Made by a program: the position numbers and the translations under genes
Source: Gemmatimonadota bacterium
GTDB lineage: Bacteria > Gemmatimonadota > Gemmatimonadetes > Palauibacterales > Palauibacteraceae
Assembly (NCBI GenBank): GCA_958295535.1
Contig: OY282356.1
Location: forward strand, 1,945,614-2,009,613
Length of the DNA: 64,000 nt
Direction of reading: 5' to 3'
The notes under the pieces: model-generated
Told to the model about the DNA's origin: nothing
Seen by the model: the letters and a program-made list of their open reading frames with translations, nothing else
Database searches by the model: none
Part shown: in pieces, positions 23,877 through 44,210 of the stretch
How the letters are laid out: the number at the start of each line of letters is the position of its first letter
Numbering within the stretch: position 1 is the stretch's first letter

Positions 23877-25847
23877 TCATGGGCGGAACTCCACCTTCCA
23901 TATGTTATCCAAACCGCCGTCTGCGAGGACATACTGGCCGGTTGAGAGGACGGAGATACCGTATTCCGGAAGAGGGATTTTCGCTAGGCATTTGTCGTCG
24001 AATATCGCGCCCCAATCGTTGAAGTAGAAGTCCAGGTCGTCGAAGGCGTACTGCTTGCGATCATCGGGAAGGTCGTTCACGTCGACCGGGTAAAGGTGCA
24101 GAAAGAACACGGCCTCCGTGTCGGCGGAGGTGCACGGATCCTTAGCGTAGATCAGCGCGTCCTCGCGAAGATACAGGTCAAAGTCGGAGCGGACCGCCGG
24201 TTCGCCGGACAAGAGCGAGTCAACGGCGGACTGTCGCGCACCGGCACTGTCATAGGCATCGTTCACTCTGTAGATGGCACCATCGGCAAGTTCCGCCACC
24301 GGCTCCAACGGGAGCGGCGACTCCATCTGCAAGAGGTCGCAATTTATTTGGGAGCGTTCGCCCGCGCCGACCCATACGACGTACTCTTCGGGTTCCCCGT
24401 ACCGCCGGGATTCCAGGATGGCCCGCTCGAACCAGCGCTGGCAATCGTAGATGTTCCGCAGGTTCCGCCGCGGCACCGGAACCCAGGTCACCCGCGTTCC
24501 CGTAATCCCCGCGTTCCACCGGAGTACGTTGGGGTCGTTGCTGTAGTACCGGTACTGGCCGGAGGCGGGGTTCGCACGGACATATTCCACCAGCTCGGAA
24601 TCCTCCCAGTACGCCGTGTTGAAACTCTGGCCGATGTACCCCGATTCCAGGGCTTCGGCGGTCAATTGCAGATTCCGCTGCACCGAGACGCCGATATGCC
24701 AAGCACCGCCGATAAGCGCGAGAGCAATCAGCGCCCGCCGGACCACGGACATCCTCCCCGACGCCCTGCTGCTCAGGAGTCCATCCAGCCAGAACGCCGC
24801 GACGAACAGCAGCGGGACGTAGACCGGCACGAGGTACCGGCTATCTATGCCTTGCTGGGCCGTGAACGGCACCACCACGGCCATGATCGCAAGGTACGAC
24901 AGCGCGAAGCCCCCGAAGACGGAAGACGCCCGGCCCGGGCGAGGGGTGATGAGGAGAAGCGCCGCCAGCAGCAGAACCATACCGGCAATCAGCCACGGCG
25001 AGTGCTGCAACTGCCAGTGGATCGGGGACGACGGGTCGGCCCACCCGTGGAACACCTCGACGATCTGGCCAAGCGAATCGAACAGGGACTGTCCCGACGC
25101 TAAGGACCTGTCCCCGGCGAGAGTTTCGGAGACCAGTAGGTTGCGCGCCAGCACAGCCGCGAGCGGGAGCGAGGAGATGGCGCCGAAGGCCAGGGCATGC
25201 TTCAACCGCTCTCGTACCGGAGTATTGCGGCGCAAAAAGAGCATAAGGACTGCGGAGAAGATGAGCGCGACCCCTACGTACCTCGTCGTCGCGGCCAGCG
25301 CGGCGAATGCGGCGGAAAGCGCGAGGCCCCGCACGCCGCTGCGTCGGTTCAGGAACGACTCCAGCAGCATCAGGGCGAGGAAGGTGAACAAGACGAAGAG
25401 GGGTTCGCTCAGCAGGGTCGAAGCGGAATGCGCGAGGGGGAGAGACGCCATCACCGCCACTGCTGCGCCGAGCGCGAGCAGCCGCGACTCGAGACGCCGG
25501 CTCAGCCAGAGACCCGACACCAGAATGAGCAGGCCGAAGGCGGCCGCGTTCAGGAACCGGCCTCCGTCCACCGGCTCGATGCCGAACAGGCTCAGGAACG
25601 CCATCGCCATGGGGAGGAAAGGCGCAAAGAGCACCACTTGCCCGCCGCCGGGACTCAGCAGACCCTCTCCGGCGGCCAAGCTCTCGGCTGCCGCCAAGTA
25701 GTTGAAGGCATCGTTGCCGAGCGCCGCGCCGTAGGTGGACGTACGGATGAGGATATGCGCCGTGCCCAGAGCCGCGACGAGCGCGATGAGCGCGGGAAGG
25801 AAACGGCGCCCCCCATCCCCATGCGCCCATTTGAAAGCGTCGTTCAC
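23877..25847 (-). CDS. ArnT/PMT_2-like GT-C membrane glycosyltransferase, paralog 1, with shared C-terminal domain
   Basis: An N-terminal TM helix is followed by the first-loop motif GNDAFNYLAAAESLAAGEGLL (ArnT-like D-x-x-x-Y...A..L..G.G), then ~10 TM helices and a periplasmic C-terminal region. It ends in the CTD VRSDFDLYLREDALIYAKDPCTSADTEAVFFLHLYPVDVNDLPDDRKQYAFDDLDFYFNDWGAIFDDKCLAKIPLPEYGISVLSTGQYVL. Confidence 0.75.
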   Translation of the reverse strand: MNDAFKWAHGDGGRRFLPALIALVAALGTAHILIRTSTYGAALGNDAFNYLAAAESLAAGEGLLSPGGGQVVLFAPFLPMAMAFLSLFGIEPVDGGRFLNAAAFGLLILVSGLWLSRRLESRLLALGAAVAVMASLPLAHSASTLLSEPLFVLFTFLALMLLESFLNRRSGVRGLALSAAFAALAATTRYVGVALIFSAVLMLFLRRNTPVRERLKHALAFGAISSLPLAAVLARNLLVSETLAGDRSLASGQSLFDSLGQIVEVFHGWADPSSPIHWQLQHSPWLIAGMVLLLAALLLITPRPGRASSVFGGFALSYLAIMAVVVPFTAQQGIDSRYLVPVYVPLLFVAAFWLDGLLSSRASGRMSVVRRALIALALIGGAWHIGVSVQRNLQLTAEALESGYIGQSFNTAYWEDSELVEYVRANPASGQYRYYSNDPNVLRWNAGITGTRVTWVPVPRRNLRNIYDCQRWFERAILESRRYGEPEEYVVWVGAGERSQINCDLLQMESPLPLEPVAELADGAIYRVNDAYDSAGARQSAVDSLLSGEPAVRSDFDLYLREDALIYAKDPCTSADTEAVFFLHLYPVDVNDLPDDRKQYAFDDLDFYFNDWGAIFDDKCLAKIPLPEYGISVLSTGQYVLADGGLDNIWKVEFRP

Positions 25848-25854
25848 CTCTTCA

Positions 25855-26106
25855 TCAGCGGCGGAGCTCCCCGTCCAGGAGGTGGTGGAAATCGCCTTCC
25901 CAGAGTTGTGCGGTGGAGCCGTCCTCGTTGACGAGGAACTGGCCGGTTCTGATTTCGGAGATACCGTATTCCGGGAGAGGGACTTGCGCTAGGCACTTGC
26001 CGGCTAATCTCTTGCCGTGCGTCTCGAAATTAAACAACATCACTGCTACGGTCAAGACGCTGGCCGTGGCAGGCAGAACGCGGATGCTGAAGGCCGAGAC
26101 ATCCAT
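25855..26106 (-). pseudogene. Remnant of a GT-C paralog: TM-helix fragment fused to the last ~50 residues of the shared C-terminal domain (internal deletion)
   Basis: MDVSAFSIRVLPATASVLTVAVMLF matches the early TM region of GT-C 52882..54855 (VDVSAFSIRVLPAAASVLTVAALLF). It is fused directly to FETHGKRLAGKCLAQVPLPEYGISEIRTGQFLVNEDGSTAQLWEGDF, which is the CTD tail. It lies immediately upstream of paralog 1 on the minus strand. Confidence 0.6.
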
Positions 26107-27946: not shown

Positions 27947-28209
27947 TCGATCCGGGGCCTTGGCCTGCTCTTTTCAAGTGCATCGCGCGCGACGCATCTT
28001 TTTTCTCCAGCAACTCGTTCTCGACCGCGTCCGCCAGAGAGACATAGCTTGTCTGGGCGTAACATATAGGGGAATTGTCGGCGCTAGGGCAAGCGTACCG
28101 CGCCCTGCGGGTTATATTATGCTTGGAGAGTTGTCATCGGCATTACATCGCTCGTCAAATGCGCGGGCGGCAACGAAAAAATGCGCGGACGGTAACGAAA
28201 AGCGAACGA

Positions 28210-28632
28210 ATGGAAACCCACGAACGTCTGACCGAGGACGAACAGGTCGAGGGTGGGTCCGACCGCAGCTTCGGCATCGTCTTCGCATCCGCGTTCGTAG
28301 TCATCGGCCTGTTCCCGCTGCTTCACGGCGGGCCGCTCCGCAGCTGGGCGTTCGGCGTCGCGGGAGCGTTCCTGGCGGTGGCGCTCGGCAGGCCGGCGCT
28401 GCTGGCGCCGCTGAATCGGGCGTGGTTCAAGTTCGGGCTGCTGCTGCAGCGCGTGGTCAACCCAATCGTCATGACCGTGATCTACTTTGCCGTGGTGACC
28501 CCGACCGGCCTCGTCATGCGCGCCCTGGGGAAGGATCCGCTCCGCCTGCGACACGACCGCGATGCGGAGAGCTACTGGATCCACCGCGATCCGCCCGGCC
28601 CGGAGCGCGAATCGATGAAAAACCAGTTCTGA
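28210..28632 (+). CDS. Small 3-4-TM membrane protein, possibly SxtJ-family
   Basis: Start METHERLTEDEQ. SFGIVFASAFVVIGLFPLLHGGPLRSWAFGVAGAFLAVALGRPALLAPLNRAWFKFGLLLQRVVNPIVMTVIYFAVVTPTGLVMRALGKDPL resembles small SxtJ-like membrane proteins seen in glycan/carbamoyl clusters. This is from memory and not verified. Confidence 0.3.
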   Translation: METHERLTEDEQVEGGSDRSFGIVFASAFVVIGLFPLLHGGPLRSWAFGVAGAFLAVALGRPALLAPLNRAWFKFGLLLQRVVNPIVMTVIYFAVVTPTGLVMRALGKDPLRLRHDRDAESYWIHRDPPGPERESMKNQF

Positions 28633-28652: not shown

Positions 28653-29873
28653 ATGTCCTTTCTGCGCGAGTTGCGGGGGCCTCGTTCGGCGAATTTGCTC
28701 GCAGCCGTCGCCGCAGCTTTGCTGGCGACTACCGTAGGCTGCACTGAAGCGAGGGACCAGAGACCGAGCGCCGCCTTTGCCATCGCAAAGTGGTTTGACA
28801 ACCACGCCGCGGCCATCTCTATCACGGCCGACGATTGGCCGGACGCGAACCGCCCGGTTGACGACTTCGTGCTGGACATGGGGCTGGTCCTGGACTACGA
28901 GATGGTCACTCAGGCATATGCCGACCAAGCGCCCGATTGGGTCGAACACGACTTGACGGACCTCATCCCTCACATCGTCCCCGGCGTGTCGCTAGACAAG
29001 TTCGAAGACCGACGGATCGAGTACGACTTGGCGCTCGCGGCCCGGGGTTCGGGCTTCTTCGGGCACGGGCATTGGCACGTCGACCACGACGCGCTCTCCT
29101 ATGCCCAGGCCTACGATTCGTTTCGGCTGAACTTCGAGGTCATGCGGGAACTGGGGTTGAAACCGGTGGCGTACGCGTACCCTCGAAGCGCTGGACACGA
29201 AGAGGAAACCAGGAGGGCGCTGGCCGACGCCGGATTTCTCTCGGGCCGCTTGGCAGGGCCGGGAGGCCAGTCGCCGTATATCGTCCCGGATTCCGACACG
29301 ACGCCGGATGACTGGTTCTTCCTGCCCGCCCTGACGATGGAGAGCCACGACTTTCAGCAGTGCGACGGCTGCATCAACGACACCGAGGAACTGACACCTA
29401 TCCTGGACGCCGCCATCGAGAAGACGGCCTGGATCATCCCGGTGTACCATGCCATCGGAATGAGCACGGGCTGGGGACCCTACAGATGGGAGGACTTTCA
29501 GGAAGACATGCGGGCCATCGCCGCTCGCGACTTCTGGGTCGCCCCCATGAACGACATCGTTCTCTATCTGCGGGAAAGGGAGAAGGCCGTCGTCGAGATG
29601 AACGCGATGGAACAGGATGGGGCGACGAAGCAGATCAAGATCACTCTTTCCGACGGGTTGGACAACGAGCGGTTCGACCAGCCGTTGACGCTGATTTTCT
29701 CGCCGCCGGCGGATTGGGCCGGACTGCCGGTGCGCATCACGCAGAACGAGCGGACAGTGGACTGGATTTTCTTGGACGCGGATACCGCGCAGGTTTCGCT
29801 CCGGCCCAACGAGGAGCCGTACGTGCTAGAGGCGTGGCATCCGCCGCGCAGCATCGAGGGGCGGCAACCCTAG
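28653..29873 (+). CDS. Lipoprotein, polysaccharide deacetylase (CE4/NodB-like) family candidate
   Basis: RBS aggaga 7 nt upstream of ATG 28653. Signal peptide plus lipobox (LLAAVAAALLATTVGC). NodB-like motifs ISITADDWPD (TFDD-like), FFGHGHWHVDH (His-rich metal site) and AYAYPRSAGH. The listed ORF 27816..29873 includes a long out-of-frame upstream extension. Confidence 0.55.
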   Translation: MSFLRELRGPRSANLLAAVAAALLATTVGCTEARDQRPSAAFAIAKWFDNHAAAISITADDWPDANRPVDDFVLDMGLVLDYEMVTQAYADQAPDWVEHDLTDLIPHIVPGVSLDKFEDRRIEYDLALAARGSGFFGHGHWHVDHDALSYAQAYDSFRLNFEVMRELGLKPVAYAYPRSAGHEEETRRALADAGFLSGRLAGPGGQSPYIVPDSDTTPDDWFFLPALTMESHDFQQCDGCINDTEELTPILDAAIEKTAWIIPVYHAIGMSTGWGPYRWEDFQEDMRAIAARDFWVAPMNDIVLYLREREKAVVEMNAMEQDGATKQIKITLSDGLDNERFDQPLTLIFSPPADWAGLPVRITQNERTVDWIFLDADTAQVSLRPNEEPYVLEAWHPPRSIEGRQP

Positions 29874-30098: not shown

Positions 30099-30845
30099 TC
30101 ACAAGCGGTTCATCCGCTTGAACAGGCGCTCCGGGACAGCGCGCAAGACGAACATGATCGGACGCCAGATCCGGCGCACGTAGATCACATCGCGGCGGCG
30201 GCGAATTGCCGCCACGACCGCGGCGGCTACCTCTTCCGGGGTCGCGGTCAGCCGCTCCGGCAGGTCCATGCCGTCGGTCATGCGCGTACGCACGAAGCCC
30301 GGCTTGACCGTCACCACATGGGCGCCGGAGGCGGCCAGCCGGCCGCGCAGACCGGAGAGGAAAGCGGTGAACCCCGCCTTGGCCGAACCGTAGACGTAGT
30401 TCGCGGCCCGTCCCCGCTCGCCGGCAACCGAGCTGACGCCGACCAGGACGCCGCCGCCGCGACGCTCGAAGCGCTCTGCCAGCGCCCCCATCAGCAGCGC
30501 GGGGCCGACATAGTTGGTGCGCATCACGCGCTCGGCGGCGGCACAGTCCCGCCGACTTTCCGCCTGGTCGCCGAGCAGCCCGACGACGCACACAGCCACA
30601 TCGGGCAGCGGATCGAGCGTGTCTAGCAGCGAGACGCCACCATCTTCATCGAGCACATCGCACCGATGCGCGGTCACGGCGACCCCCGCGCGCACTCGGA
30701 TGTCGCGCACCTCTCTCTCCAGCCGCGCCCCGTCGCGGGCCGCGAGCTGCAATGCGCAGCCGTCTTCCGCCAGCGTGCGCGCGATGGCGCGGCCGATACC
30801 CGACGTGGCGCCGATCACCAGCGCTGTCTCGACTCTGCCGTTCAC
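30099..30845 (-). CDS. dprE2: DprE2-family short-chain dehydrogenase/reductase (polyprenyl-phospho-2-keto-pentofuranose reductase homolog)
   Basis: 248 aa. VIGATSGIGRAI (TGxxxGxG), SSVAGERGRAANYVYGSAKAG (catalytic S/Y/K), KPGFVRTRM and a C-terminal IMFVLRAVPERLFKRM. It is colinear with mycobacterial DprE2 (Rv3791: LLGGTSEIGLAI / [21 protein letters not shown] / RPGQVRTRM / YVMMVLRHIPRSIFRKL; from memory). 4-bp overlap with the upstream GT-C. Confidence 0.8.
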   Translation of the reverse strand: MNGRVETALVIGATSGIGRAIARTLAEDGCALQLAARDGARLEREVRDIRVRAGVAVTAHRCDVLDEDGGVSLLDTLDPLPDVAVCVVGLLGDQAESRRDCAAAERVMRTNYVGPALLMGALAERFERRGGGVLVGVSSVAGERGRAANYVYGSAKAGFTAFLSGLRGRLAASGAHVVTVKPGFVRTRMTDGMDLPERLTATPEEVAAAVVAAIRRRRDVIYVRRIWRPIMFVLRAVPERLFKRMNRL

Positions 30846-33133
30846 GGTACGGCTTTCCCGCCATCCGCCGACTCGACAACATCGAAGCTGCCCTCCCAGA
30901 TCTTCTGGCCCTCGCCGGTGAACTGGCCGGTGCGGATCGCGGTGATGCCGTAGTCGGGCAGATCCAGCCGGGCTACGCAGACTCGTCCGTCGACAAGGTG
31001 GTTCCTCAAATCAAAGTCGAGATTGTCGAAGCCGTACTGCTTGCGATGGCCGGGGAGGTCGTTCCTGTCAACCGGGTCCAGATGCACGAAGAACATTGGT
31101 TCGGCATCCTCCGGACTGCATGAGTCCTTGGCGTAGATGAGGCCGTCTTCAACAAGATACACATCCCAGTCGGAGCGGATGGTCGGCGGGCCGTCTCCGG
31201 CCAGTCTTGCCATGTAATCGCCCATCGGCACTGTTTCGATCCTGACCGTCTGGAGCGCATTGCGGGGCAGCACGAGCGCGGCCACGCACAAGCCCGTTTG
31301 CGTTCGCGTCCAGGCTTTGGCGACCGTTTCCTCTCCCGGACCAACCCCTGACAACACTATCAACTCGTTCGGCGCACAATTCCTGACGAACGCCTGCGTC
31401 AGCCGGCCGTCCACGATCAATCCGATGCTATCCGACTGGCGGTCGAAGTGGGGTTCAATCCTCTCCCAAGTCCTGGCGACGGTATTTTCATCTGCCGGAT
31501 TTTCATCTGTCGGCAGCCCGATGGGCCGTAGTTGGAGTTCCACTCCATTCAGGATGCTTGGCAGTCTCTCAAAGTGCTTGATTAAGGCCAAATGAGTTAT
31601 TCCGGCGCTATCCGCGTTTCCCGTGTGGAAGTAGTCATAAGAGTTGACCAAGCCATCCAGGTTCACCACTGGAAAGCGCGAGAAATACCCGATGGTGCCG
31701 CCCATGTCCCGCGCCCCGAACACGCCGTCCTCGGGATGCACGCGATTCATAATCTGCGTACCCCCATAAACGGCTTCAGTCCATTCATTGTTAGAAACGG
31801 CCTTGATCCATTTGTCGTCAGTTCTGGTTGAGACGCTGATCGCTTCAGCACGCCGAAATGGCTCGGTGAAATCGGCCTTGGCAAACAGGGATACCGCGGC
31901 GGCAATTGCAATGCCCACGCTCAGAATGTTTGCCGCCCAAGGCGACCTCGGTCCGATGAAACGGCGGATGAAGTAAATGGCGACGTAACCTCGCACGGGA
32001 ACGATCAGCGTCATCAGCAGGTACGCCGGGACAAAATACCAAGGCCAAGGCCCCAAGGAAGGGTGAATCGTGAGAACAGTCTGCGCGAATTTGGCCAGAT
32101 GGCCGGCTGCCAAACTGAACACGCCCACCAGAAATGCCAGCTGCAGCCAGTCCTCCCGACTCCGGGAGCGGCGGGCGAACCACCAAACGAGCAGGACATA
32201 GAAGCAGACCTCCAGCGCGACCAACAGCTCGTAGTCGAAGGCGGGAAGATGAAGGATGTCCCGGAAGTTCTGAACGAAGCTGTACCCGCCTTCCCGCTCC
32301 CACCGCTGCTGCGACCACATCTGCTTGGTTGCGCCGCTCACGGGCGTCACGCCCCCGAAGACGGTACCGTTATATGCGAAGTACACGAGGATGCCGACGA
32401 CCGCGCCCAGTAGTGGTGCGACGTGTTCATCGCGAGCACGGAATGGCCAACCCCTCTCGGGGGTGCCGAGGCCCTCTCCATCTCCCTCGACAGGGGGGAG
32501 TGACTCACGCCTCGACCACTCGACGAAGCACAGCGCCGCGGTCGCCGCCAGCGATATGGCGATGTACTCCAGGCGCACCCAGGGCAGGACAAAGGCGACC
32601 GCGGCCAGCGTCCACTTCCACCGCGCCGGGTTTCGTGCAAAGAGACAGACGGCCAGAATGAACAGGCCCAGCATGAACAGCGCCGCCGCCGCTTCCATTC
32701 CTGCAGTCATGAAGGTGATGTGGTAGAGCATCGGCAGCGCGGCGAACATCAGATACCACGGCATGCGCGCCAGCCGGGCGGCCGCGGCGACGAGCGCCAC
32801 GCCGCCGGCCACGAGCATGATCTCGAACGCCTTGATGGCGAACAGCGCGGCTTCCTTGTCGAATGCCCAGTAGAACGGCGTGATCAGAAACATCCAGATC
32901 GGATGATATCCGTTGGTGCGCGTTATGCCGCCGTCGAAGGTCGAGAACTTCCCCTCGGCCAGGTTGCTGGCGATCTGGAAGTAGTAAAAGGCGTCATCGT
33001 GCGTGTTGGAGATAAGGCTGATGAGATCGAAGCGGCCGAGCATGTACCAGGCGAACCCGGCCCCGTACGCCAGGATGCCCGCGACGAACAGGACGAACAG
33101 CGCGTTGCTCAGCCGGGAAGACGAGGTCCTCAC
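30842..33133 (-). CDS. ArnT/PMT_2-like GT-C membrane glycosyltransferase, paralog 2, with shared C-terminal domain
   Basis: First-loop motif THDDAFYYFQIASNLAEGKF, ~12 TM helices and a large periplasmic domain. CTD: TIRSDWDVYLVEDGLIYAKDSCSPEDAEPMFFVHLDPVDRNDLPGHRKQYGFDNLDFDLRNHLVDGRVCVARLDLPDYGITAIRTGQF. It lies between dprE1 and dprE2 homologs with 4-bp overlaps on both sides. Confidence 0.75.
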   Translation of the reverse strand: MRTSSSRLSNALFVLFVAGILAYGAGFAWYMLGRFDLISLISNTHDDAFYYFQIASNLAEGKFSTFDGGITRTNGYHPIWMFLITPFYWAFDKEAALFAIKAFEIMLVAGGVALVAAAARLARMPWYLMFAALPMLYHITFMTAGMEAAAALFMLGLFILAVCLFARNPARWKWTLAAVAFVLPWVRLEYIAISLAATAALCFVEWSRRESLPPVEGDGEGLGTPERGWPFRARDEHVAPLLGAVVGILVYFAYNGTVFGGVTPVSGATKQMWSQQRWEREGGYSFVQNFRDILHLPAFDYELLVALEVCFYVLLVWWFARRSRSREDWLQLAFLVGVFSLAAGHLAKFAQTVLTIHPSLGPWPWYFVPAYLLMTLIVPVRGYVAIYFIRRFIGPRSPWAANILSVGIAIAAAVSLFAKADFTEPFRRAEAISVSTRTDDKWIKAVSNNEWTEAVYGGTQIMNRVHPEDGVFGARDMGGTIGYFSRFPVVNLDGLVNSYDYFHTGNADSAGITHLALIKHFERLPSILNGVELQLRPIGLPTDENPADENTVARTWERIEPHFDRQSDSIGLIVDGRLTQAFVRNCAPNELIVLSGVGPGEETVAKAWTRTQTGLCVAALVLPRNALQTVRIETVPMGDYMARLAGDGPPTIRSDWDVYLVEDGLIYAKDSCSPEDAEPMFFVHLDPVDRNDLPGHRKQYGFDNLDFDLRNHLVDGRVCVARLDLPDYGITAIRTGQFTGEGQKIWEGSFDVVESADGGKAVP

Positions 33134-34422
33134 AGCGCAAGCCTCCGCGACAGCTCGGAGGCGAATCTGGACGGCGCCCCGGGCGTCTCGGCCCGGATCC
33201 CCTCGAAGGCGTCAAAACGGGGGTAGCCTTCCCGCACCCGTTCCGTCGCACAGTGGGCATCTTTGGCAAAATAGACGCGCCCCCCGTACCGGTGGGTGAT
33301 CTCGTCGAGCCCGTCGAGCAGCGCCGCAGTGCCGGCGCGCAGCGGAAAGTCGAGCGCCAGCGTGTAGCCCTCCATGGGGAACGACATCAACCCGTCCCCG
33401 GCGGGGCCGAACAGCTTGAGCACCCCCAGGAACGAGCTTTGTCCCGATGCGGCGGCGCGCTCCAGAAGGGCGGCGATCCCGGCCGCGCTTTCGTCTTTGG
33501 GCAGCACGCACTGGTACTGAACGAACCCTCGCCGCCCGTAGAGGCGGTTCCACGCCTCTATCCGATCCAGGGGAAAGAAGAAGCGGTCGAAATGGACCGG
33601 CCGCGCCCCGAACCGTGCGCGTGCCCGCCCGTGCCGGTAGCAGAGCTCGTTGAAGAGGCCGACCGAGATCCTGTTGAGCAGCGCGGACGGCGCATCGGCG
33701 GGAATCCGGCATTTGACGCCGGGGGCCGGACGCAAGGGATCGGACGCCAGGCGCGGCGGCAGTGCGCTGCGCTCCATGAACGCGCCGCGCGTCATCACCG
33801 AGCGGCCCAGTCCCGCGCCCCGCGCCAGACAGTCGATCCAGGCCACGCTGTAGGGCCAGTCGCGGGACTCCTCGAACAAGGCCATCGTCTCGTCAAGGTC
33901 GCGCGCGGCCAGGGTCTCCACTGTCACGAACGCGGTATCGACGGGCCTCAAGCGGAAACGCGCAGATAGGATCACCCCGGTGAGACCCATCCCCCCCAGG
34001 GTGGCGCGGAAGAGATCGGCGTTCTCCTTGCGGCTGCATTCCCGTATCGTGCCGTCCCCGCTCGCCAGCGTCAGCGATTCCACATGTGCGCCGAAGGTCC
34101 CGTCGCGATGATGGTTTTTCCCGTGCACGTCAGCCGCGATCATGCCGCCGACGGTGACGAACTTGGTCCCCGGCGCCACCGGCGGGAACCAGCCGCGCGG
34201 CACGAACGTCGCCAGGATGTCCGCGAGCAGCGCGCCGGCCTCGCAGTCGAGCAGGCCCGTCCCGGCGTCGAACGCCCGCATCCGGTCCATCGCGAGCATC
34301 GACAGCGTCAGTTCCGGGTTGAGCGCCGCGTCGCCGTAGGACCGCCCGTTGCCGCGAGCGATCAGCGTCTTGCCGCGATGAAGCAGACCGGGCAGGTCCC
34401 CGCGCTGGCGCAAGCGCTCCAA
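33130..34422 (-). CDS. dprE1: DprE1-family FAD-dependent oxidase (polyprenyl-phospho-pentofuranose 2'-oxidase homolog)
   Basis: 430 aa. IARGNGRSYGD, GTKFVTVGGMIAADVHGKNHHRDGTFGAHV, GFVQYQCVLP, FLGVLKLFGP and GGRVYFAKDAHCATERVREGYPR. They are colinear with Rv3790 DprE1 (ARGLGRSYGD / [30 protein letters not shown] / GFLQYQFVIP / FLNVFKLFGP / [23 protein letters not shown]; from memory). Confidence 0.85.
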   Translation of the reverse strand: MERLRQRGDLPGLLHRGKTLIARGNGRSYGDAALNPELTLSMLAMDRMRAFDAGTGLLDCEAGALLADILATFVPRGWFPPVAPGTKFVTVGGMIAADVHGKNHHRDGTFGAHVESLTLASGDGTIRECSRKENADLFRATLGGMGLTGVILSARFRLRPVDTAFVTVETLAARDLDETMALFEESRDWPYSVAWIDCLARGAGLGRSVMTRGAFMERSALPPRLASDPLRPAPGVKCRIPADAPSALLNRISVGLFNELCYRHGRARARFGARPVHFDRFFFPLDRIEAWNRLYGRRGFVQYQCVLPKDESAAGIAALLERAAASGQSSFLGVLKLFGPAGDGLMSFPMEGYTLALDFPLRAGTAALLDGLDEITHRYGGRVYFAKDAHCATERVREGYPRFDAFEGIRAETPGAPSRFASELSRRLAL

Positions 34423-34531
34423 CCGGCAATCGACGGATGGATACCGACCCCAGCCCGAGAGGATTATGCGGCCCGCTCCCGGAACGCGAAGCGCGGACCA
34501 AGAAACGCGGGCGCCGCCGTGCCCGCGCGCG

Positions 34532-36103
34532 TCACAGCGCGGCCGCGAACGCGGCCAGGACGCCGATGCCGGTCAGCCAGCTCGCCCGGTCGCGTAGCGC
34601 AAAGATCAGGGGGTCCTCGTTATCCGGCATCCGTTTGGAGGTCTCCCCTCCCCCACGACCGATGAGGAGCGCGATGCGCCCCAGCCAGTAGAGCAGCAGC
34701 GGACAGATCATCCACAGAAACTCGGGGCGGGCGTAGCGCTCCCCCGTCTCCGGACTCTGGATGTAAAGAGTCAGAATCACCACCGAAGCGACGCCGGTCG
34801 CCGCGCCCAGCGCCGCCATTACCTGGAAGTCTTCGGCAAGATAGGCGCGGCCGCCGGAGGCGGACCGGCCGGATCCGCGCAGTTCGCCTTGGCGCTTGGC
34901 GATGGCCAGCGCGAGGAACAGGAACAGGAAGAAGGCGATCAGCCAGGGCGACAGCGGGACCGACACTGCCGCCGCGCCGGCCAGCACACGGAACGCGTAG
35001 AGCATGGCGAGGATGACCACATCGATGAAGGTCTTCCGCTTCAGCGACAGCGAGTAGGCGCAGGTCATGGCCAGATACAGAAGGACCCAAAGCCCGGCCA
35101 CGGCGGACAGCCAGAAAGCCAGAGCGAGACCGCCCGCCGCCAGCGCGGCGCCAATGCCGATCATCGGCAGCAGAGGCGCCCTCCCCGCCGCCATCGGGCG
35201 GTGGCGCTTGGCGGGGTGCCCGCGGTCGTGCGGAAGATCGAGCAGGTCGTTCAGCAGGTAGCCGCCCGATGCCACAGCCGCCAGGGCCGCAAACACCCCG
35301 GCGGCCACTAGGTACGGCCCCGCGTCGGTCTCGTGCACCGCGGCGAGGGGCACGAACACGAGCAGGTTCTTCACCCACTGGTGCGGCCGCAACGCCCGGA
35401 ACCAGTCGAGCGGGCGACCGCCGAGCCCGGGCAGGAGCCGAGCCTCGCCGTCAAGCGCCCGCACCTTGCGCGCCAGCTCCGGCGGCAAGCCGACCCCGGC
35501 GGCGCGCCGCGCCCGCTTCCAGACCGCCAAGTCGCGGCGCCCGCTGCCAATGTAATCGAAGCCGCGGTCGCCAAAGCGGGCGGCCAGAGCAACTGCCCTG
35601 GCCTCGCCCACAAAGTTGGTGCGGTCGTCCGAGGCGAGACAGCCCGCCGCCCCCACCATCTCGGCGAGCGGCGAGACCGCCTGCGCATCGGAGGCGGAGA
35701 CCAGCCACACCGAGCGTCCCGCGGCCTGCGCGGCGGCAATCTCCTCCAGCACGGCCGGGTTCAACGCCAGCGTGCCGGCTGGCAACGGAACCGCCTCCGC
35801 GATCCTGCGCCTCAGTCCGGCACGTCCCCTCGCCATGGCGGCGGCCAGCCAGAACGGCAGGGCGAACAGGCTGAGCGGCGAGACCGAGAGCAGCCGGGCG
35901 ATCCCCTCGGCCAGCAGATCCCCGCCGACCAGCAAGCCGTCGACATCGACGACCAACGGCGGCTCGGCAGCGCCTCGCAGGTTGTCCGGCACAGCCTCGG
36001 CCCGGCTTCCGCGGATCAGTTTTCCGGCCCCGTCATCCAGCGCCGTCATAAGCCTTCGCCACGGGTGCGGACGGCGCGGTAATCGCTCTGATCGTGTTGC
36101 CAT
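34532..36103 (-). CDS. Fusion protein: N-terminal HAD-superfamily phosphatase domain + C-terminal UbiA-family polyprenyl-phosphate phosphoribosyltransferase (DPPR-synthase-like)
   Basis: 523 aa. The N-terminal ~200 aa carry HAD motif I VVDVDGLLVGG and later SVWLVSASD. The C-terminal ~300 aa are polytopic, with the UbiA Asp-rich motif LLNDLLDLPHDRGHPAKRHRPMAAGR (NDxxDxxxD). The start may be an internal Met (e.g. MTALDD) because the listed start overlaps the upstream GT-C by 71 nt. Confidence 0.75.
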   Translation of the reverse strand: MATRSERLPRRPHPWRRLMTALDDGAGKLIRGSRAEAVPDNLRGAAEPPLVVDVDGLLVGGDLLAEGIARLLSVSPLSLFALPFWLAAAMARGRAGLRRRIAEAVPLPAGTLALNPAVLEEIAAAQAAGRSVWLVSASDAQAVSPLAEMVGAAGCLASDDRTNFVGEARAVALAARFGDRGFDYIGSGRRDLAVWKRARRAAGVGLPPELARKVRALDGEARLLPGLGGRPLDWFRALRPHQWVKNLLVFVPLAAVHETDAGPYLVAAGVFAALAAVASGGYLLNDLLDLPHDRGHPAKRHRPMAAGRAPLLPMIGIGAALAAGGLALAFWLSAVAGLWVLLYLAMTCAYSLSLKRKTFIDVVILAMLYAFRVLAGAAAVSVPLSPWLIAFFLFLFLALAIAKRQGELRGSGRSASGGRAYLAEDFQVMAALGAATGVASVVILTLYIQSPETGERYARPEFLWMICPLLLYWLGRIALLIGRGGGETSKRMPDNEDPLIFALRDRASWLTGIGVLAAFAAAL

Positions 36104-37931
36104 CTTTGTCCGTACAGTACGCGTAGGCCCTCAGGCGATGGCCAACGTCCGCGGCAGCCGGGGTGTATTGATAGGAGGCCCAGCGGGGCGCGACTTTGGT
36201 CCAACCGGTCGCATCGCTGCCCCGTTCCCATTGCCATGGTTGGAATCTGGCAGACCCGCATTCAAGCCGGGCCGACAATCTGACGCCGAACGGCTCGCCT
36301 GCCACCGGAGCGACAGCGCTGATGAAATAGGCGGGAGCGGGATCGGCGTCGCTGCGAGTTACGCGATAGATCGAACCGTCGGACAACTCGGCCACCAGCT
36401 CCAGTCCCAGCAATTCCCTCAACACGCCGATAGTGGCCGGATACTGCATCGAATCCATCCAAGCGACATAGTCGCCGGGCACAGCCAGTTCTATCTGCCC
36501 TCTCATCGTATCCAGATCGAAGGGAAGATAGTGAAGGTCCGCATGATTCGCGCGGAGGTATATGAAAGATGACACATTGCTGAATATACGGTTCGCCAAT
36601 AGATGCTCTTCAACATACCGCATGACATCCGAGCGGGCCAATACCGGCACCATTCCCATGCCTCGTCCCTCGTTGTTCAATACGATTTCACGCACGTTCA
36701 GCGCCGCCTGTACAGCCAGCCACAGGGAAAGGGCTGTCGCCAGGGTAGCCACCAGCAGGTTCGCCGTTCTGCCCTCTCCCCCGACGATTCTGTTTGAATC
36801 GCCGGCAACCCGCCGGAGGGTTCTCAGGACCTTTCTGGCCGGATCGAGCCCAAGGAACTTGTCCAGCGCAAACACTGCCGCGAACAGGAGCGGGAGATAC
36901 ATAGGAGACAGGTAGCGGCCGCCGAGGGGCGTGAGATCGAAGCCCGCTTGCGCGGCCGTGAGAAAGACGAGGTACACCAGGGCAAAGCCGCCAAACAAGT
37001 GGAAGGGCTCCATCCGGCGCCGTTTCCCCTGCCAGGCACGAACGAACGCGTGGCCGACGGACACCGCCAGCGCCAACAGGGCTACTCCGACCAGCGCCGC
37101 GGCGGCCACCCTGACGCTCCCGGACGGCAAGTAGAGGAATACCCACTGGGCCAGATCGCTCAGGAATTTGTCCAGAATCTCCTGCACCGTATGCGGCGAC
37201 GGGCCGATGCGCCCGCTGAGTCTTCCGTGGAACAGGACGTTCCGCAACAGCCACAGCGCCACCGGCAGCGCGGCGATCGACAGGTACAGGCCGATGCGCT
37301 TCGCTTTATCCAACGGCACGACGCCGCGCTGGAAGATCAGCAGGGGTAAAGTGGCCATGATCAAGGTGACGCCGCTATAGCGGGTCAGAAAGGCCAAGGA
37401 AGCGAACGCCGCCGCCCAAATCAGGTCCGAACGCTTGCCGGTATCCAGAGCCGTGGAAGTCCGAACCAGAGAGAGCGTCACGAACAGGATAAAGGGAGTC
37501 TCGGAAACTGCGTGAGACGCCATCCTGGTCAAGGGGATTGCCAGCATGATGGCGACACAGGCCCAAAGGACCAGGACATGGTGTCGGACATGCCGCCGCA
37601 AGTATTGACCGGCGACGAATAGAGTCAGTCCGAAGGCGGCGGCATTCAACGGCCCGGCGACATCGTAGGGGACAAACACAAAGAGACCGGCAGCGGCGAG
37701 CAGCATCGGATACAGCGGCGGCCAGTGCAAATAGGGCCAGCCGTGAACTTGAACGAAGCCCTCTCCCGCCGACAGACTCTGGGCCGCGGACAGGTAAGCG
37801 GCCCAATCCGCGCTCAGTCCCACTCCGTAAGTGACTTGTCGCGCCAGGATGAGTACCGTGCCCAGCGCTGCAAGGGCGGCAAGGAGCAGGGTGAAACGAT
37901 CGGGCCGCCTGTCTGGCGCCCGTCTACTCAT
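36033..37931 (-). CDS. ArnT/PMT_2-like GT-C membrane glycosyltransferase, paralog 3 (C-terminal WxW module instead of the shared CTD)
   Basis: First-loop motif ADWAAYLSAAQSLSAGEGFV, ~11 TM helices and a periplasmic C-terminal region. It ends FQPWQWERGSDATGWTKVAPRWASYQYTPAAADVGHRLRAYAYCTDKDGNTIRAITAPSAPV, the WxW module shared with 38528..41164. Confidence 0.7.
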   Translation of the reverse strand: MSRRAPDRRPDRFTLLLAALAALGTVLILARQVTYGVGLSADWAAYLSAAQSLSAGEGFVQVHGWPYLHWPPLYPMLLAAAGLFVFVPYDVAGPLNAAAFGLTLFVAGQYLRRHVRHHVLVLWACVAIMLAIPLTRMASHAVSETPFILFVTLSLVRTSTALDTGKRSDLIWAAAFASLAFLTRYSGVTLIMATLPLLIFQRGVVPLDKAKRIGLYLSIAALPVALWLLRNVLFHGRLSGRIGPSPHTVQEILDKFLSDLAQWVFLYLPSGSVRVAAAALVGVALLALAVSVGHAFVRAWQGKRRRMEPFHLFGGFALVYLVFLTAAQAGFDLTPLGGRYLSPMYLPLLFAAVFALDKFLGLDPARKVLRTLRRVAGDSNRIVGGEGRTANLLVATLATALSLWLAVQAALNVREIVLNNEGRGMGMVPVLARSDVMRYVEEHLLANRIFSNVSSFIYLRANHADLHYLPFDLDTMRGQIELAVPGDYVAWMDSMQYPATIGVLRELLGLELVAELSDGSIYRVTRSDADPAPAYFISAVAPVAGEPFGVRLSARLECGSARFQPWQWERGSDATGWTKVAPRWASYQYTPAAADVGHRLRAYAYCTDKDGNTIRAITAPSAPVAKAYDGAG

Positions 37932-38443
37932 CGAAGCGGACCTCGCCTTCTCATGATGGCGATGCCGGACACCAACGCGCCGACAATCACGCCAGGGTAG
38001 TCGCCACTATCCTCATAGACAATTTTGTCGTCGAACGGACTGACAAGGAATGGCAGCGTCGCTCTGGCGATGCGGTAGAACTGATTCTCCAGGAAGTTCC
38101 CCCATTCAATCGCGGAGTTGTCCTCATGGAACCCTAAGCTATACGTCATGGACTTCACCGTAGGCAGTTCAGCCAGCGGGACCTCGCCGTCCAATGCCCG
38201 GTATTCGCTGCCGAGGTTGAAAGATAGCGCCGCCATGCCGAAAAGCAGGGTGACGACGCCCAGCTTCAGGTAGCGGCCGAACGGAGGCGCGGTGACGCAG
38301 CGCTTGATTCGACTTGCCAAACTCGGAGGAGCGAGCCGACGCACCCGGTTCAGCTCCCTCGCCATGCCCAAGACGATAAACGGCAGCAGCAGCGCATAGA
38401 CGTGCCATCCCAACAGCAACGCCGCGCACGCCTTGACGAGCAA
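37928..38443 (-). CDS. Hypothetical small membrane protein (171 aa)
   Basis: ORF translationally coupled to the downstream GT-C (4-bp overlap). N- and C-terminal hydrophobic helices (LLLGWHVYALLLPFIVLGM; GVIVGALVSGIAIM) flank a ~100-aa segment. No family recognised. Confidence 0.35.
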   Translation of the reverse strand: MLVKACAALLLGWHVYALLLPFIVLGMARELNRVRRLAPPSLASRIKRCVTAPPFGRYLKLGVVTLLFGMAALSFNLGSEYRALDGEVPLAELPTVKSMTYSLGFHEDNSAIEWGNFLENQFYRIARATLPFLVSPFDDKIVYEDSGDYPGVIVGALVSGIAIMRRRGPLR

Positions 38444-38527: not shown

Positions 38528-41164
38528 TCATCGGCGGAATTCCGCTTCCCAGATATTGCTTGAACCGTCGACAACGAGCACGTACTGGCCGGTTCTGATT
38601 TTGGAGATGTCGTATTCCGGGAGAGGGACGTTCGCCAGACATTCGCCATCGAATCTGTCGCCGTGCCGGTCGAAATGGAAATCCAGGTTGTCGAAGCCGT
38701 TCCGCTTGCGATCGTCGGGGAGGTCCTCCGGGTCGATGGGGATGACGTGTAGAAAAAACATCGCTTCGGTGTCGGCTGGGGCGCACGGTCGCTTAGAGTA
38801 GGTCAGCGTGTTTTCGCGGATATGTATGTCGAAAGTGGAACGGGCCGCAGGCTCGCCTGAAGCCGCCCCCGAAAAATGGCTGTCAAACCACCGCCGTTTC
38901 TCCTCGAACCAGTGCTCCATTTCCCAAAGGAGGTTCCCATCGCGGTCAACCTGTCCGGCCCGGATGCCGAAGAGGTCCTTCGTCGGGAGCTGGCGCTCGG
39001 CGACGCAGGCGCCGTCGTTCTTCCAGAAACTATGGTGCCATTCAAAATCCAGGGTAGCGCGTTCCGGCATTCCACTCTCGGAATCCAACGAATAGACGCT
39101 CAACGGGAACCGCGACCGGTTTTCGTCTTCCCGGATGCAGCTCCGGTTCCTATAGATCAGCCTGTTTCCGTGGAGGTACACATCGTACCCGGAACGAATG
39201 CCGCGGTCCGCTTCGGAAGCGCCCGCCGCTCCCCTTCCGTCTTCGCTTCCAAGCGGCACCAACACTTTCAGGATGTCCGGCTGTACGGGCTCGGACGGCC
39301 TGGTAGTCGCTCCTACTCGGTTGCCGAGCTGGTCTTCGTAGTACACCGAAGCGCGCAGGCGATGCCCGACATCGGCAACCGTGGGGGTGTACACGTGGTT
39401 GGGCCGTTGAACCGGGAGGCTCGCCCAGCCACCCGCATCGCCGCCTTTCTCCCACCGCCACGGGTTCCCTCGCCGCTCTCCGTGGGAGCGGTTGACATAG
39501 ACATAGAACGGCTCCCCCTCCACCGGAGCATCGGAACTGAGGAACATGGCTGGCCGGGACTCCAGCCGGGACTCCAGGGAGTCGCGTTGCAAGCGATACA
39601 GCTTGCCGTCCGCCAGCTCCGCCACCGGCTCCAGCAAGCGCTCCCGAGACAAGGCGCTTCGGAGATCCTCGTCCTGCTGCCGAGAGCATCTTCCCCGCGA
39701 GTCGACGAAATCGAGGACATATGCCTCTCCGCCGTCAAGCGCTTTTGACCATGCGAACGGTAGATGATCCGGTTCGCACGGCAAGCTGTAATGGCGGCGC
39801 AGATTGTCGGCGTACAAAGCCGTGACGGGTCGGACATTGCTCCAGATCGTGCCTGTCAGAGCCGCCTCCCGAATGTACGACACGCTCTCCGAACGCCTCC
39901 ACCGCGGGTCGGCATACATGTCGTGTCGCGCACCGGCATTCCAGAGCGGTATCTCGCGGTAATGCAGCGCAACCAGCCAGGCCGCCTGGAGGACAAGCGC
40001 CAACATACAGGATGGCACGAGAGCCCCCCGCTGGAACTCGACTCGCCGCCGGCGCGGAACGACTCCCCGCGGCGCCCGCCGGCGCACATGCCGGAGGGCG
40101 CCATCCATCAGCAACAGCGCCGCGAACAGGAGCGGAATGTACACCGGAGCGAGATATCTCCACTGCAATCCACTCCAGGTGTTTCCCGACATCATCGCGG
40201 CGACGAGCAGCGTCAGGTACGCGAGCGCAAAACCGCCGAACACGCGCAACGGCCTCCAGGCAACACCCGAAGCAGCGGAAGCACCCATTTTCCGATCCGA
40301 GCGGCGCCAGAACGCATGGCAGGCAGTCATCACGAGCGTCAACAGAACCGGGGCGGTCAACCCGACGAGCCACCAGTCCAAAACCGCGATTCGCAAGACG
40401 TCGGCCACGATGTAGGGAAAGGAGTAGAAAACCCCAGCTACTCTGGAACCGACCGGATATCCGACAAGCAGATAGTTCCGCAGCATCCACAGACCCGTCG
40501 GCGCCGCCGCTATCAGCACATAGACGGCGATACGCTTCATCTTCTCCCGTGGCGCAACCCGCGCCGCAAGCAGCAACGGGACCACCGCCAGGATCGCGGA
40601 AGCGCCCATGTAGCGGGTTAGCCAAGCCAACGCGCTGTACGCCGCCGCCCGGATCAGGGCTGCGCGGCCGCCGCCGCCCAGGTGGGCATCGATCTGCGTC
40701 AGCGAGAGCGTCACGAACAGAATGAATGCCGGCTCGCTCATGGCCTCGGACGCGATCTCGGCGAGCGGAAGGGCCAGCGCGATCGAGAGACAGCCCCACA
40801 GCCACAGGAACCGGGAGTGAAGATGGCCCCGCATCCACCAACCAGCGACCAGAACGGTCAGCCCGAAGATTACGGCGTTGAGCGGCCCGGCGATGGCGTG
40901 GGGGTCGAGCCCGAACAGCCCCCCGCTTGCGAGCATCGCCGGATACAGCGGCGGATAGGTCACCAAAGAGCGACCCAACAAATCGACAAAGCCATCACCC
41001 GCCAGGAGATTGCGGGCCACCGTGATGTAGTTGACGGCATCCCAACCTATGCGTGGTCCGTGGCCCGCCTGCCGCAGGAGCACCAGACCCGCGCCCAGCG
41101 CGGCGGCCGCGACGAGGTGGAGTTGCCCCGGTTTCGTGAACAGTTTAGTGACTTGGGTTTTCAT
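38528..41164 (-). CDS. ArnT/PMT_2-like GT-C membrane glycosyltransferase, paralog 4, with WxW module and two copies (one degenerate) of the shared C-terminal domain
   Basis: Probable start MKTQVTKLF (ATG 41164); the listed ORF extends to 41266. First-loop motif GWDAVNYITVARNLLAGDGFV, then TM helices. The periplasmic region contains NPWRWEKGGDAGGWASLPVQRPNHVYTPTVADVGHRLRASVYYEDQLGNRV. Next is a degenerate CTD (IRSGYDVYLHGNRLIYRNRSC...LDFEWHH...GACVAERQLP...IRAGQ). A canonical terminal CTD follows (ARSTFDIHIRENTLTYSKRPCAPADTEAMFFLHVIPIDPEDLPDDRKRNGFDNLDFHFDRHGDRFDGECLANVPLPEYDISKIRTGQYVL). Confidence 0.7.
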   Translation of the reverse strand: MKTQVTKLFTKPGQLHLVAAAALGAGLVLLRQAGHGPRIGWDAVNYITVARNLLAGDGFVDLLGRSLVTYPPLYPAMLASGGLFGLDPHAIAGPLNAVIFGLTVLVAGWWMRGHLHSRFLWLWGCLSIALALPLAEIASEAMSEPAFILFVTLSLTQIDAHLGGGGRAALIRAAAYSALAWLTRYMGASAILAVVPLLLAARVAPREKMKRIAVYVLIAAAPTGLWMLRNYLLVGYPVGSRVAGVFYSFPYIVADVLRIAVLDWWLVGLTAPVLLTLVMTACHAFWRRSDRKMGASAASGVAWRPLRVFGGFALAYLTLLVAAMMSGNTWSGLQWRYLAPVYIPLLFAALLLMDGALRHVRRRAPRGVVPRRRRVEFQRGALVPSCMLALVLQAAWLVALHYREIPLWNAGARHDMYADPRWRRSESVSYIREAALTGTIWSNVRPVTALYADNLRRHYSLPCEPDHLPFAWSKALDGGEAYVLDFVDSRGRCSRQQDEDLRSALSRERLLEPVAELADGKLYRLQRDSLESRLESRPAMFLSSDAPVEGEPFYVYVNRSHGERRGNPWRWEKGGDAGGWASLPVQRPNHVYTPTVADVGHRLRASVYYEDQLGNRVGATTRPSEPVQPDILKVLVPLGSEDGRGAAGASEADRGIRSGYDVYLHGNRLIYRNRSCIREDENRSRFPLSVYSLDSESGMPERATLDFEWHHSFWKNDGACVAERQLPTKDLFGIRAGQVDRDGNLLWEMEHWFEEKRRWFDSHFSGAASGEPAARSTFDIHIRENTLTYSKRPCAPADTEAMFFLHVIPIDPEDLPDDRKRNGFDNLDFHFDRHGDRFDGECLANVPLPEYDISKIRTGQYVLVVDGSSNIWEAEFRR

Positions 41165-41305
41165 GCGGCTTCGCGGAGGCGAAGGAGGTATATTGGCAGC
41201 CCTGATCGGAGTGGTGGAGGAGCGAGTCCGGGCGGCGTTGCCGAACGGCCATGTCGAGGAAATCAAGCACGAGTTCGGCGCACTGTCGTCTGCGGAGCGG
41301 CTCTA

Positions 41306-42568: not shown

Positions 42569-43207
42569 TTGGATGTGTCGCGCGCGGAGCGCCTGCTTGA
42601 CCGGAAAGATAATTCCGTGAGCCACCCTGGAAAAGAAGCTCTATCCTGGCTGCGAAGCCTCGCCAAGCTGCTCGACGAATCGACGTGCCGATACCAGGGA
42701 GACCCCATATCGTTGGACCGTGGTCTGAATGCCCTGCTACAGATCTGGTCGAGACAGATCGTTCGCGACCGTTCAGTTTTCTGGATCGGCAACGGCGGCA
42801 GTGCGGCGCTGGTTTCTCACCTGTCTCAGGATTTGATCAACCAATGCGGCGTCAGATCTCAGACTTTCAACGATCCTTCGCTGATCACGTGCATGTCGAA
42901 CGACTATGGATACGAGCAGGTCTTCAAGCGTCCCCTGCGGGCCCTCGCCCGTGAACGCGATGTCCTGATGGCGGTATCGAGCTCCGGAATGTCGGCGAAC
43001 ATCGTGGATGCCGCTCGAACCGCTCTCGAGATCGGGATGGACTTGGTGACATTCTCGGCATTCTCGGCCGACAACCGCTTGCACAAGCTGCAATCCACAC
43101 TTTCCTTCCATACGCCGACCGATATCTACGGACACGCCGAACTAGCCCATGCAGCGTTGATTCACGCTGCTGTCGACATATGTTCTCGATGGGAAGAGGA
43201 AAGATGA
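42569..43207 (+). CDS. gmhA: D-sedoheptulose-7-phosphate isomerase (SIS domain)
   Basis: SIS-domain phosphoheptose isomerase motifs: SVFWIGNGGSAALVSHLSQDL, VLMAVSSSGMSANIVDAARTALEIGMDLVTFSAF. ATGA overlap with hddA. Confidence 0.85.
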   Translation: MDVSRAERLLDRKDNSVSHPGKEALSWLRSLAKLLDESTCRYQGDPISLDRGLNALLQIWSRQIVRDRSVFWIGNGGSAALVSHLSQDLINQCGVRSQTFNDPSLITCMSNDYGYEQVFKRPLRALARERDVLMAVSSSGMSANIVDAARTALEIGMDLVTFSAFSADNRLHKLQSTLSFHTPTDIYGHAELAHAALIHAAVDICSRWEEER

Positions 43208-44199: not shown

Positions 44200-44210
44200 T
44201 ACAGGGCGAT

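Follow-up and report, generated by a model that had tools for sequence, protein, structure and literature searches.

In a 64,000-nucleotide stretch of genomic DNA from a Gemmatimonadota bacterium (GenBank assembly GCA_958295535.1, contig OY282356.1, positions 1,945,614 to 2,009,613 of the forward strand; hereafter the window) we analyzed a minus-strand operon, 42160-30099, whose products are predicted to synthesize a polyprenyl (presumably undecaprenyl) phospho-beta-D-arabinofuranose donor and to include the periplasmic glycosyltransferases of the GT-C fold that would use it. An original prediction, made from the sequence of the window, had picked out three minus-strand genes of this region as counterparts of the mycobacterial decaprenyl-phospho-arabinose (DPA) route, interleaved with GT-C genes. 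All six minus-strand open reading frames (ORFs) that it named are present in the window, its three donor-pathway genes lie where it placed them, and every motif quoted from them is found in their translations. In the order of transcription the operon comprises:

41306-42160, minus strand: sulfotransferase-like protein of 284 residues, the first gene of the operon
38528-41266, minus strand: GT-C paralog, predicted at 912 residues from the first start, the true start probably lying near 41164
37928-38443, minus strand: small ORF of 171 residues with about two transmembrane helices, overlapping the next gene by 4 nucleotides
36033-37931, minus strand: glycosyltransferase of the GT-C fold, 632 residues, a candidate periplasmic arabinofuranosyltransferase
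34532-36103, minus strand: HAD-UbiA fusion protein, 523 residues, a predicted HAD phosphatase (PRP) joined to a UbiA-type polyprenyl-phosphate phosphoribosyltransferase (PPPRS)
34505-34528, minus strand: GC-rich hairpin in the spacer between the UbiA and dprE1 genes, from a terminator-like scan
33130-34422, minus strand, from a TTG start (430 residues), or to 34467 from an ATA (445 residues): DprE1-type flavin adenine dinucleotide (FAD) oxidase
30842-33133, minus strand: membrane protein of 763 residues with about 11 transmembrane helices
30099-30845, minus strand: short-chain dehydrogenase/reductase (SDR) of 248 residues, the last gene of the operon

The six named ORFs display the bias in G+C content at third codon positions (GC3) seen in real genes, in a window with an overall G+C of 63%; across 34001-36000, a segment over the UbiA and dprE1 genes, the G+C fraction climbs to 0.71, as against about 0.63 for the window. 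The translational coupling that had been claimed for the three donor-pathway genes holds in one part of the operon: 4-nucleotide overlaps join dprE1 to the gene for the 763-residue protein, and the latter to the SDR gene. It does not extend to the UbiA and dprE1 genes, which are 64-109 nucleotides apart with the hairpin inside the gap. This hairpin is one of the terminator-like sites of the window, and scans of the window for promoters and terminators gave no excess over the shuffled expectation. Further upstream, the end of the 632-residue gene overlaps the start of the HAD-UbiA gene, which probably begins at the ATG at 36049. The ORF given earlier as 38528-41164 is present too, but 41164 is an internal start and the frame extends to 41266.

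Sequence profile searches with the three predicted donor-pathway enzymes recovered their mycobacterial counterparts in each case. The 523-residue protein contains a UbiA domain (Pfam, e-value 1e-20), and the NCBIfam profile PRK08238 matches its residues 45-522 over profile positions 9-479 of 482 with 489 bits (cut-off 351). The HAD and UbiA domains thus lie in a single continuous protein, which belongs to a fusion family that is curated already, with no stop codon or frameshift between them, even though the Pfam HAD match taken by itself is weak (21.5 bits versus a cut-off of 27). In a search of the PDB sequences the UbiA domain had a sole match, the Mycobacterium tuberculosis decaprenyl-phosphate phosphoribosyltransferase DPPRS (8j8j; 92 bits, 35% identity), and the NCBIfam DPPRS models NF008976-8 gave 143, 119 and 111 bits (cut-offs 207, 234 and 474). 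Both the DxD motif of the HAD domain (D53, D55) and the aspartate-rich loop NDxxDxxxDRxHPxKxxRP of the UbiA domain, here NDLLDLPHDRGHPAKRHRP, are kept in at least 90% of the sequences when 56 fused homologs are aligned. The FAD enzyme combines a FAD_binding_4 domain (Pfam, e-value 1e-18) with a match of 428.8 bits to the NCBIfam DprE1 model NF053785 (under its cut-off of 500), other FAD oxidase models scoring at most 58 bits; among PDB sequences the DprE1 proteins of M. smegmatis and M. tuberculosis were recovered with 304 bits and 39% identity, and the next class, cytokinin oxidase, with 48 bits. It keeps the elements GRSYGD, DVHGKNHH and QYQ as well as the catalytic lysine of YFAKD, which we take to be Lys418 in M. 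tuberculosis DprE1 numbering. For the SDR, an adh_short match (Pfam, e-value 7e-31) is accompanied by NCBIfam matches to PRK07102 (330 bits, over the cut-off of 267) and, in second place, to the DprE2 model NF053786 (193.8 bits, under the cut-off of 250), and the PDB sequence search returned DprE2 (21gq_C) with 111 bits and 33.5% identity, the next SDR reaching 67 bits. The family assignments of the original prediction are borne out by these results: the oxidase belongs with DprE1 and not with alditol oxidase or GlcD, the UbiA-type enzyme with phosphoribosyltransferases and not with quinone prenyltransferases, the phosphatase domain is indeed fused to the latter, and the SDR is nearest to DprE2. 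The chemistry proposed from them, leading from phosphoribosyl pyrophosphate (PRPP) to polyprenyl-phospho-ribose and on to polyprenyl-phospho-arabinofuranose, is likewise supported.

We then turn to the gene-neighborhoods of the more than 8,000 database relatives of the DprE1 homolog, for which a survey taking a single genome from each species yielded at least 582 confirmed loci; the counts of related loci given here are those for the best 80. In 69 of these loci a fused UbiA gene flanks the DprE1 homolog, and in 70 an SDR gene does. The usual arrangement places the UbiA gene directly upstream of dprE1 and the SDR gene directly downstream, and this order recurs in about 70 of the 80. The loci are spread over the Alpha- and Gammaproteobacteria, Acidobacteriota, Cyanobacteria, Bacteroidota, Planctomycetota and Kiritimatiellia, with one from Nocardioides, and the DprE1 homolog is also encoded on 65 plasmids, 34 of them from Rhizobium; the one plasmid inspected more closely carries the cassette. 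The cassette is hence widespread in public genomes and plasmids, contrary to the initial view of a pathway that is rare outside the Corynebacterineae. Nor is the HAD-UbiA fusion a special feature: such a fusion has been characterized biochemically (PMC11127046), and among the related loci studied here, which are mostly non-actinobacterial, a predicted fused phosphatase is the rule. The closest relatives among the matches listed are three loci, L001-L003, with 79-84% identity in DprE1; as they come from metagenome-assembled genomes, the source lineage appears to be uncultured.

The candidate transferases have relatives elsewhere in the window, and three further sets of features need to be introduced at this point:

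23877-25847, minus strand: further GT-C paralog of 656 residues, outside the interval reported at first
22324-23637, plus strand: Wzx-like flippase of the MOP family (Polysacc_synt, e-value 2e-11), 45% identical to 5425-6789
2569-4992, 23877-25847, 30842-33133, 38528-41266 (two tandem copies), 52882-55713, 56191-58173, 60128-60808 and a fragment at 25855-26106: carriers of a shared C-terminal domain of about 105 residues

Structural modeling of the product of 36033-37931 confirmed that its predicted structure adopts the GT-C fold; among its best structural matches are protein O-mannosyltransferases (Pmt4, Pmt2, Pmt1) and oligosaccharyltransferases (AglB, PglB, STT3). The spacing of Asp42 and Tyr46 in this transferase resembles that of D31 and Y35 in ORF12 of Citrobacter youngae, a comparison made via the residue numbers of the published paper only. 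The product of 38528-41266 shares 39% identity over 628 residues with the 632-residue GT-C, and that of 23877-25847 shares 30% with both over about 550 residues, in addition to weak PMT_2/PMT matches and a match to the LA_3751/2 family (e-value 1.8e-9). By this homology both are predicted GT-Cs. The interleaved genes that had been described as ArnT-like GT-Cs therefore hold up for 36033-37931, through its modeled structure, and for 38528-41266, through identity, whereas the third, 30842-33133, gave only a weak match.

That third gene encodes the 763-residue protein, which sits between dprE1 and the SDR gene in L001-L003 as well. Pfam scans of its family found no match in 36 of 36 members, and a search of the family profile against the PDB sequences was also without a match. 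An AlphaFold model built on the shallow 36-sequence alignment had a pLDDT of 40. Its first loop carries the motif DDaFYYFqIAxNLaeG...HPlW, which is reminiscent of GT-Cs; a comparison of the transmembrane region of the family with the GT-C family using hhalign gave a colinear but weak alignment (probability 12%, e-value 0.0024), and profile-profile comparison of the two families reached high confidence for the C-terminal domain only. A putative GT-C is thus a reasonable guess for this protein. The C-terminal domain in question, of about 105 residues with two conserved cysteines, is common to at least seven proteins of the window and links the 763-residue protein with the GT-Cs. It follows the pattern RSxFDVYL...C...FFLH..P.d..DLP..R...GFDNLDF...C.A...LP.Y.I..IRTGQ...WE, has no match in Pfam or in a profile search against the PDB sequences, and occurs in 2,284 cluster representatives, often as 2-10 tandem copies per protein.

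Taken together, these observations are most consistent with a system, to which we would assign a probability of about 0.7, in which undecaprenyl-phospho-beta-D-arabinofuranose is made in the cytoplasm and used by at least one GT-C to decorate or extend the periplasmic glycan of the surrounding locus. The UbiA-type domain would transfer ribose-5-phosphate from PRPP to polyprenyl phosphate, and the fused N-terminal HAD domain would remove the 5-phosphate. The DprE1 homolog would then oxidize C2' to give a 2'-keto intermediate, which the DprE2 homolog would reduce to the arabino configuration. After flipping by a component not identifiable in the window, the lipid-linked sugar would serve the product of 36033-37931 and its paralogs 38528-41266, 23877-25847 and possibly 30842-33133 in adding D-arabinofuranose (Araf) to a glycan that is probably built by the surrounding Wzx/Wzy-type polysaccharide locus. 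We favor this reading of the donor pathway because each enzyme is nearest to its mycobacterial counterpart by a wide margin in the PDB sequence searches, because, among the NCBIfam models named for a function, those for DprE1, DprE2 and DPPRS score best, and because the active-site elements of DprE1, the DxD of the HAD domain and the aspartate-rich motif of the UbiA domain are all conserved in genes whose order persists across phyla. It is further supported by the demonstration that an identical arrangement of PRP phosphatase and PPPRS domains makes polyprenyl-phospho-ribofuranose, with DprE1/E2 homologs accompanying Araf glycans (PMC11127046), and by the orthology of noeC, noeH and noeO with the genes of DPA synthesis, noeP being the transferase (PMC5080398). 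The GT-C fold of the adjoining transferase and the Wzx-like, Wzy_C, GT2, GT4 and heptose-set genes around it point in the same direction.

Several findings weigh on the other side. The DprE1, DprE2 and DPPRS homologs all remain under their NCBIfam equivalog cut-offs (429/500, 194/250 and 143/207), and are best described as homologs with the same inferred chemistry and not as strict equivalogs. Loci that lack the cassette likewise contain GT-C-like paralogs of the 763-residue family, and not every GT-C paralog need use the Araf donor. A screen of small ORFs with at least three transmembrane helices detected no flippase of the GtrA, ArnEF or EmrE type in the window. Correspondingly, tblastn searches with two GtrA proteins had no match in the window, whereas they recovered gtrA in 47 of the 80 related loci, there lying between ubiA and dprE1 (L004-L007 and 43 others). 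Like the window, L001-L003 are without gtrA, and their UbiA-dprE1 spacer is short. Another part of the genome could encode the flippase; within the window the Wzx-like proteins 22324-23637 and 5425-6789 are the sole flippase-like candidates, and tying the former to the donor pathway is pure conjecture. Finally, the start of dprE1 is unusual. The conserved DprE1 N-terminus IILSGWGRYPSVDCR is encoded upstream of the TTG at 34422, and an ATA at 34467 (34465-34467, minus strand) aligns with the methionine of P0121 (MILSGWGRYP) from a near-identical strain, the first canonical start being 15 codons 3' of it. A GGGAG Shine-Dalgarno sequence precedes this ATA by 8 nucleotides, and ATA is a permitted start in translation table 11; the public NCBI gene call, P0001, has 427 residues and is without the conserved SGWGRYP segment. 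For the ATA, use as a rare start, mutation of the start codon and an error in the assembly are all conceivable; standing where the near-identical strain has a methionine, it may entail reduced expression or an N-terminally truncated DprE1.

Among the alternatives, we considered that the same donor pathway might serve a protein acceptor, with O-glycosylation of pilin or other envelope proteins in the manner of TfpW or the PMT-type enzymes. The protein O-mannosyltransferases and oligosaccharyltransferases among the best structural matches of the GT-C would fit this, as would TfpW, which is described in a preprint (bioRxiv 10.1101/2020.04.19.049825) as a GT-C that arabinosylates the pilin of Pseudomonas aeruginosa; we regard such an acceptor as unlikely here. 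Another proposal, in our estimate quite unlikely, is that the GtrA of the ancestral cassette was replaced by the 763-residue protein, which together with the GT-C paralogs bearing the two-cysteine repeat would build a periplasmic oligo- or poly-arabinofuranan. Were it true, an arabinan-like polymer would be made in a diderm by transferase families without a CAZy or Pfam assignment. We hold it highly doubtful that the DprE1/DprE2 product is something other than arabinofuranose, such as a keto-pentose or another epimer, or that the GT-Cs draw mainly on another polyprenyl-phosphate sugar. The scores under the equivalog cut-offs and the 33-39% identity to the mycobacterial enzymes leave room for a different product, and GT-C paralogs away from the cassette, along with the promiscuity of C. 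youngae ORF12 for ribofuranose (Ribf) and xylofuranose (Xylf) donors (PMC11127046), for a different donor. Against this, the catalytic residues of DprE1 are conserved, DprE1/E2 homologs accompany Araf in surveyed loci with known glycan structures (PMC11127046), the homologous noeCHOP operon directs D-arabinofuranosylation of Nod factors (PMC5080398), and GT-C genes are embedded in, and overlap, the donor genes.

It is very improbable, in turn, that this strain has a decaying or silent cassette, whose pathway would have been left non-functional or ribose-only by the change of ATG to ATA in dprE1 and by the missing flippase gene. Such decay could account for the ATA in place of the P0121 methionine codon and the truncated gene call, for the failure to find gtrA in the window, and for its many recent duplications and gene fragments. 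However, the other ORFs are intact with high GC3, the ATA has its Shine-Dalgarno sequence and is allowed in table 11, L001-L003 have kept the operon without gtrA, and an error of assembly could explain a lone G/A difference. It is hardly credible that the three genes are mere neighbors encoding housekeeping enzymes with no relation to one another, namely a prenyltransferase for quinone or haem, an oxidase of alditols or lactones and a fatty-acid reductase. Models of haem O synthase, UbiA, sugar-lactone oxidase and FabG give weak secondary matches of 40-58 bits against 143-489 for the DPA-pathway and fusion models, the PDB matches are specific and the gene order is conserved; the combination of an unrelated FAD oxidase with a quinone prenyltransferase is ruled out by the scores and the synteny.

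The operon for the predicted Araf donor is set in a window that as a whole constitutes one large glycan locus, with two Wzx-like flippases, a Wzy_C protein, GT2 and GT4 enzymes, an epimerase and LtaS/sulfatase-like proteins; scans of the window for Rfam families at gathering thresholds and for transfer RNAs gave no matches. The 284-residue protein at the head of the operon has a weak Sulfotransfer_3 match (e-value 1e-4, under the cut-off), and in L001, the closest locus among the matches listed, a 78% identical homolog is encoded directly upstream of the UbiA gene. The 171-residue ORF is without a Pfam or NCBIfam match and without a homolog in the 80 related loci; its GC3 of 0.76 suggests that it is coding. 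Convergent with the end of the operon are genes for an SxtJ-family small membrane protein (28075-28632, plus strand) and a predicted lipoprotein with the lipobox LLATTVGC and no family match (about 28698-29873, plus strand). Divergent from the operon, a plus-strand set at 42569-44825 codes for a SIS-domain isomerase, a GHMP kinase and a HAD phosphatase, resembling a heptose-phosphate pathway of the GmhA/HddA/GmhB type, which suggests that heptose is present in the same glycan. Radical-SAM enzymes with a B12-binding domain (11800-14043) and a SPASM domain (50210-51367) lie inside the polysaccharide locus and hint at C-methylation or another uncommon modification of a sugar.

The GT2 proteins 44786-46861 and 48520-49557 were considered as candidate polyprenyl-phosphate sugar synthases of the GtrB type that might supply a second donor, and their NCBIfam similarities are only to generic or processive GT2 enzymes. 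Recent segmental duplications run through the glycan locus: 14947-16449 versus 17773-19473 (92%), 16982-17854 versus 19727-21130 (97%), 44786-46861 versus 48520-49557 (95%), 51416-52720 versus 58788-59966 (96%) and 52882-55713 versus 56191-58173 (82%). The locus also contains chimeric fragments, for example parts of a PRK07233-like oxidoreductase joined to a GT-C-like protein. In the window (56191-63284), as in a distant relative (L082, 3324-12472), tandem arrays of unannotated GT-C-like membrane proteins have as their neighbor a glucose/sorbosone dehydrogenase that bears a cytochrome c domain. At the left edge a partial minus-strand ORF (1 to about 2400) encodes a TonB-dependent receptor, as had been reported; it was recognized by its Plug-like sequence and not by a profile match, and supports a diderm host.

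The mycobacterial DPA pathway comprises the DPPRS Rv3806c, Rv3807c, DprE1 (Rv3790), DprE2 (Rv3791), the GtrA-like Rv3789 and the GT-C enzymes of the Emb and Aft families. The Gemmatimonadota operon differs from it in having a fused HAD domain as its phosphatase in place of an Rv3807c-type enzyme, in a window that is without an Rv3789/GtrA homolog and belongs to a diderm host, in a carrier that is presumably undecaprenyl and not decaprenyl phosphate, and in the alanine that occupies the Cys387 position of M. tuberculosis DprE1, the target of benzothiazinones. With the pilin system of P. aeruginosa Pa5196/PA7, which consists of the GT-C TfpW and orthologs of DPPRS, DprE1 and DprE2, it shares a Gram-negative host, a GT-C transferase and a predicted Araf donor that depends on DprE1/E2; in Pseudomonas pilin serves as the acceptor, and no pilin is present among the profiled ORFs of this window. 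The alphaproteobacterial and rhizobial cassettes, including noeCHOP, resemble it in their fused HAD-UbiA, DprE1 and DprE2 homologs, which occur in the same order with 37-58% identity and are followed by multi-transmembrane transferase genes. The alphaproteobacterial cassettes, however, have gtrA between ubiA and dprE1 and the SDR gene directly after dprE1, neither of which is the case here, and their transferases belong to other families, namely GT87 or unannotated proteins of 520-570 residues.

The closest parallel in kind is provided by the prototype from Citrobacter youngae O1/O2, in which ORF15, with an N-terminal HAD (PRP) and a UbiA-type PPPRS domain, makes polyprenyl-phospho-ribofuranose, and a "three-component" system of periplasmic pentofuranose glycosylation is completed by a small flippase together with a GT-C of family GT136 that bears a C-terminal carbohydrate-binding module (Kelly et al., PNAS 2024; PMC11127046). 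In such systems auxiliary epimerases set the identity of the pentose, DprE1/E2 homologs being found in the loci of Araf-containing glycans, and the Pseudomonas PPPRS is without the fused phosphatase domain (PMC11127046). These systems are widespread, with "more elaborate" versions that have multiple epimerases or multiple GT-Cs in Xanthomonas citri, Bacillus and Rhizobium (PMC11127046). The configuration that the original prediction took to be undescribed, DprE1/E2-coupled and GT-C-dependent addition of Araf in Gram-negative bacteria, multi-GT-C loci included, is covered by that account (PMC11127046); this class of system has been on record since 2024 and is often met with in sequenced bacteria, so the claim of novelty fails. 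The locus is instead a well-resolved further example of the periplasmic pentofuranose glycosylation systems defined then, and shows the DprE1/DprE2 route to lipid-linked arabinofuranose to be common outside the Actinobacteria. It leaves current understanding unchallenged, the biology being as expected, and offers leads for enzyme discovery and the glycoengineering of Araf-containing glycans: an operon that works, if it does so, although the customary gene for a GtrA-type flippase is missing, a family of orphan membrane proteins whose place between the two epimerase genes is conserved, and a widespread unnamed domain of about 105 residues present in one to ten copies on GT-C-like proteins. In comparison with C. 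youngae, the window is without the small flippase gene of the ArnEF/EmrE-like or GtrA/SMR kind, three to four GT-C-like genes lie in or next to the operon where C. youngae has one, an orphan membrane protein separates dprE1 from dprE2, and the C-terminal domain, a two-cysteine repeat without a name, may be distinct from the carbohydrate-binding module of ORF12. What the two systems share is the HAD-PPPRS fusion, an adjoining GT-C with an extra extracytoplasmic C-terminal domain and the setting in a polysaccharide locus, and, as in the three-component systems for Araf, the auxiliary DprE1/E2 homologs are present here.

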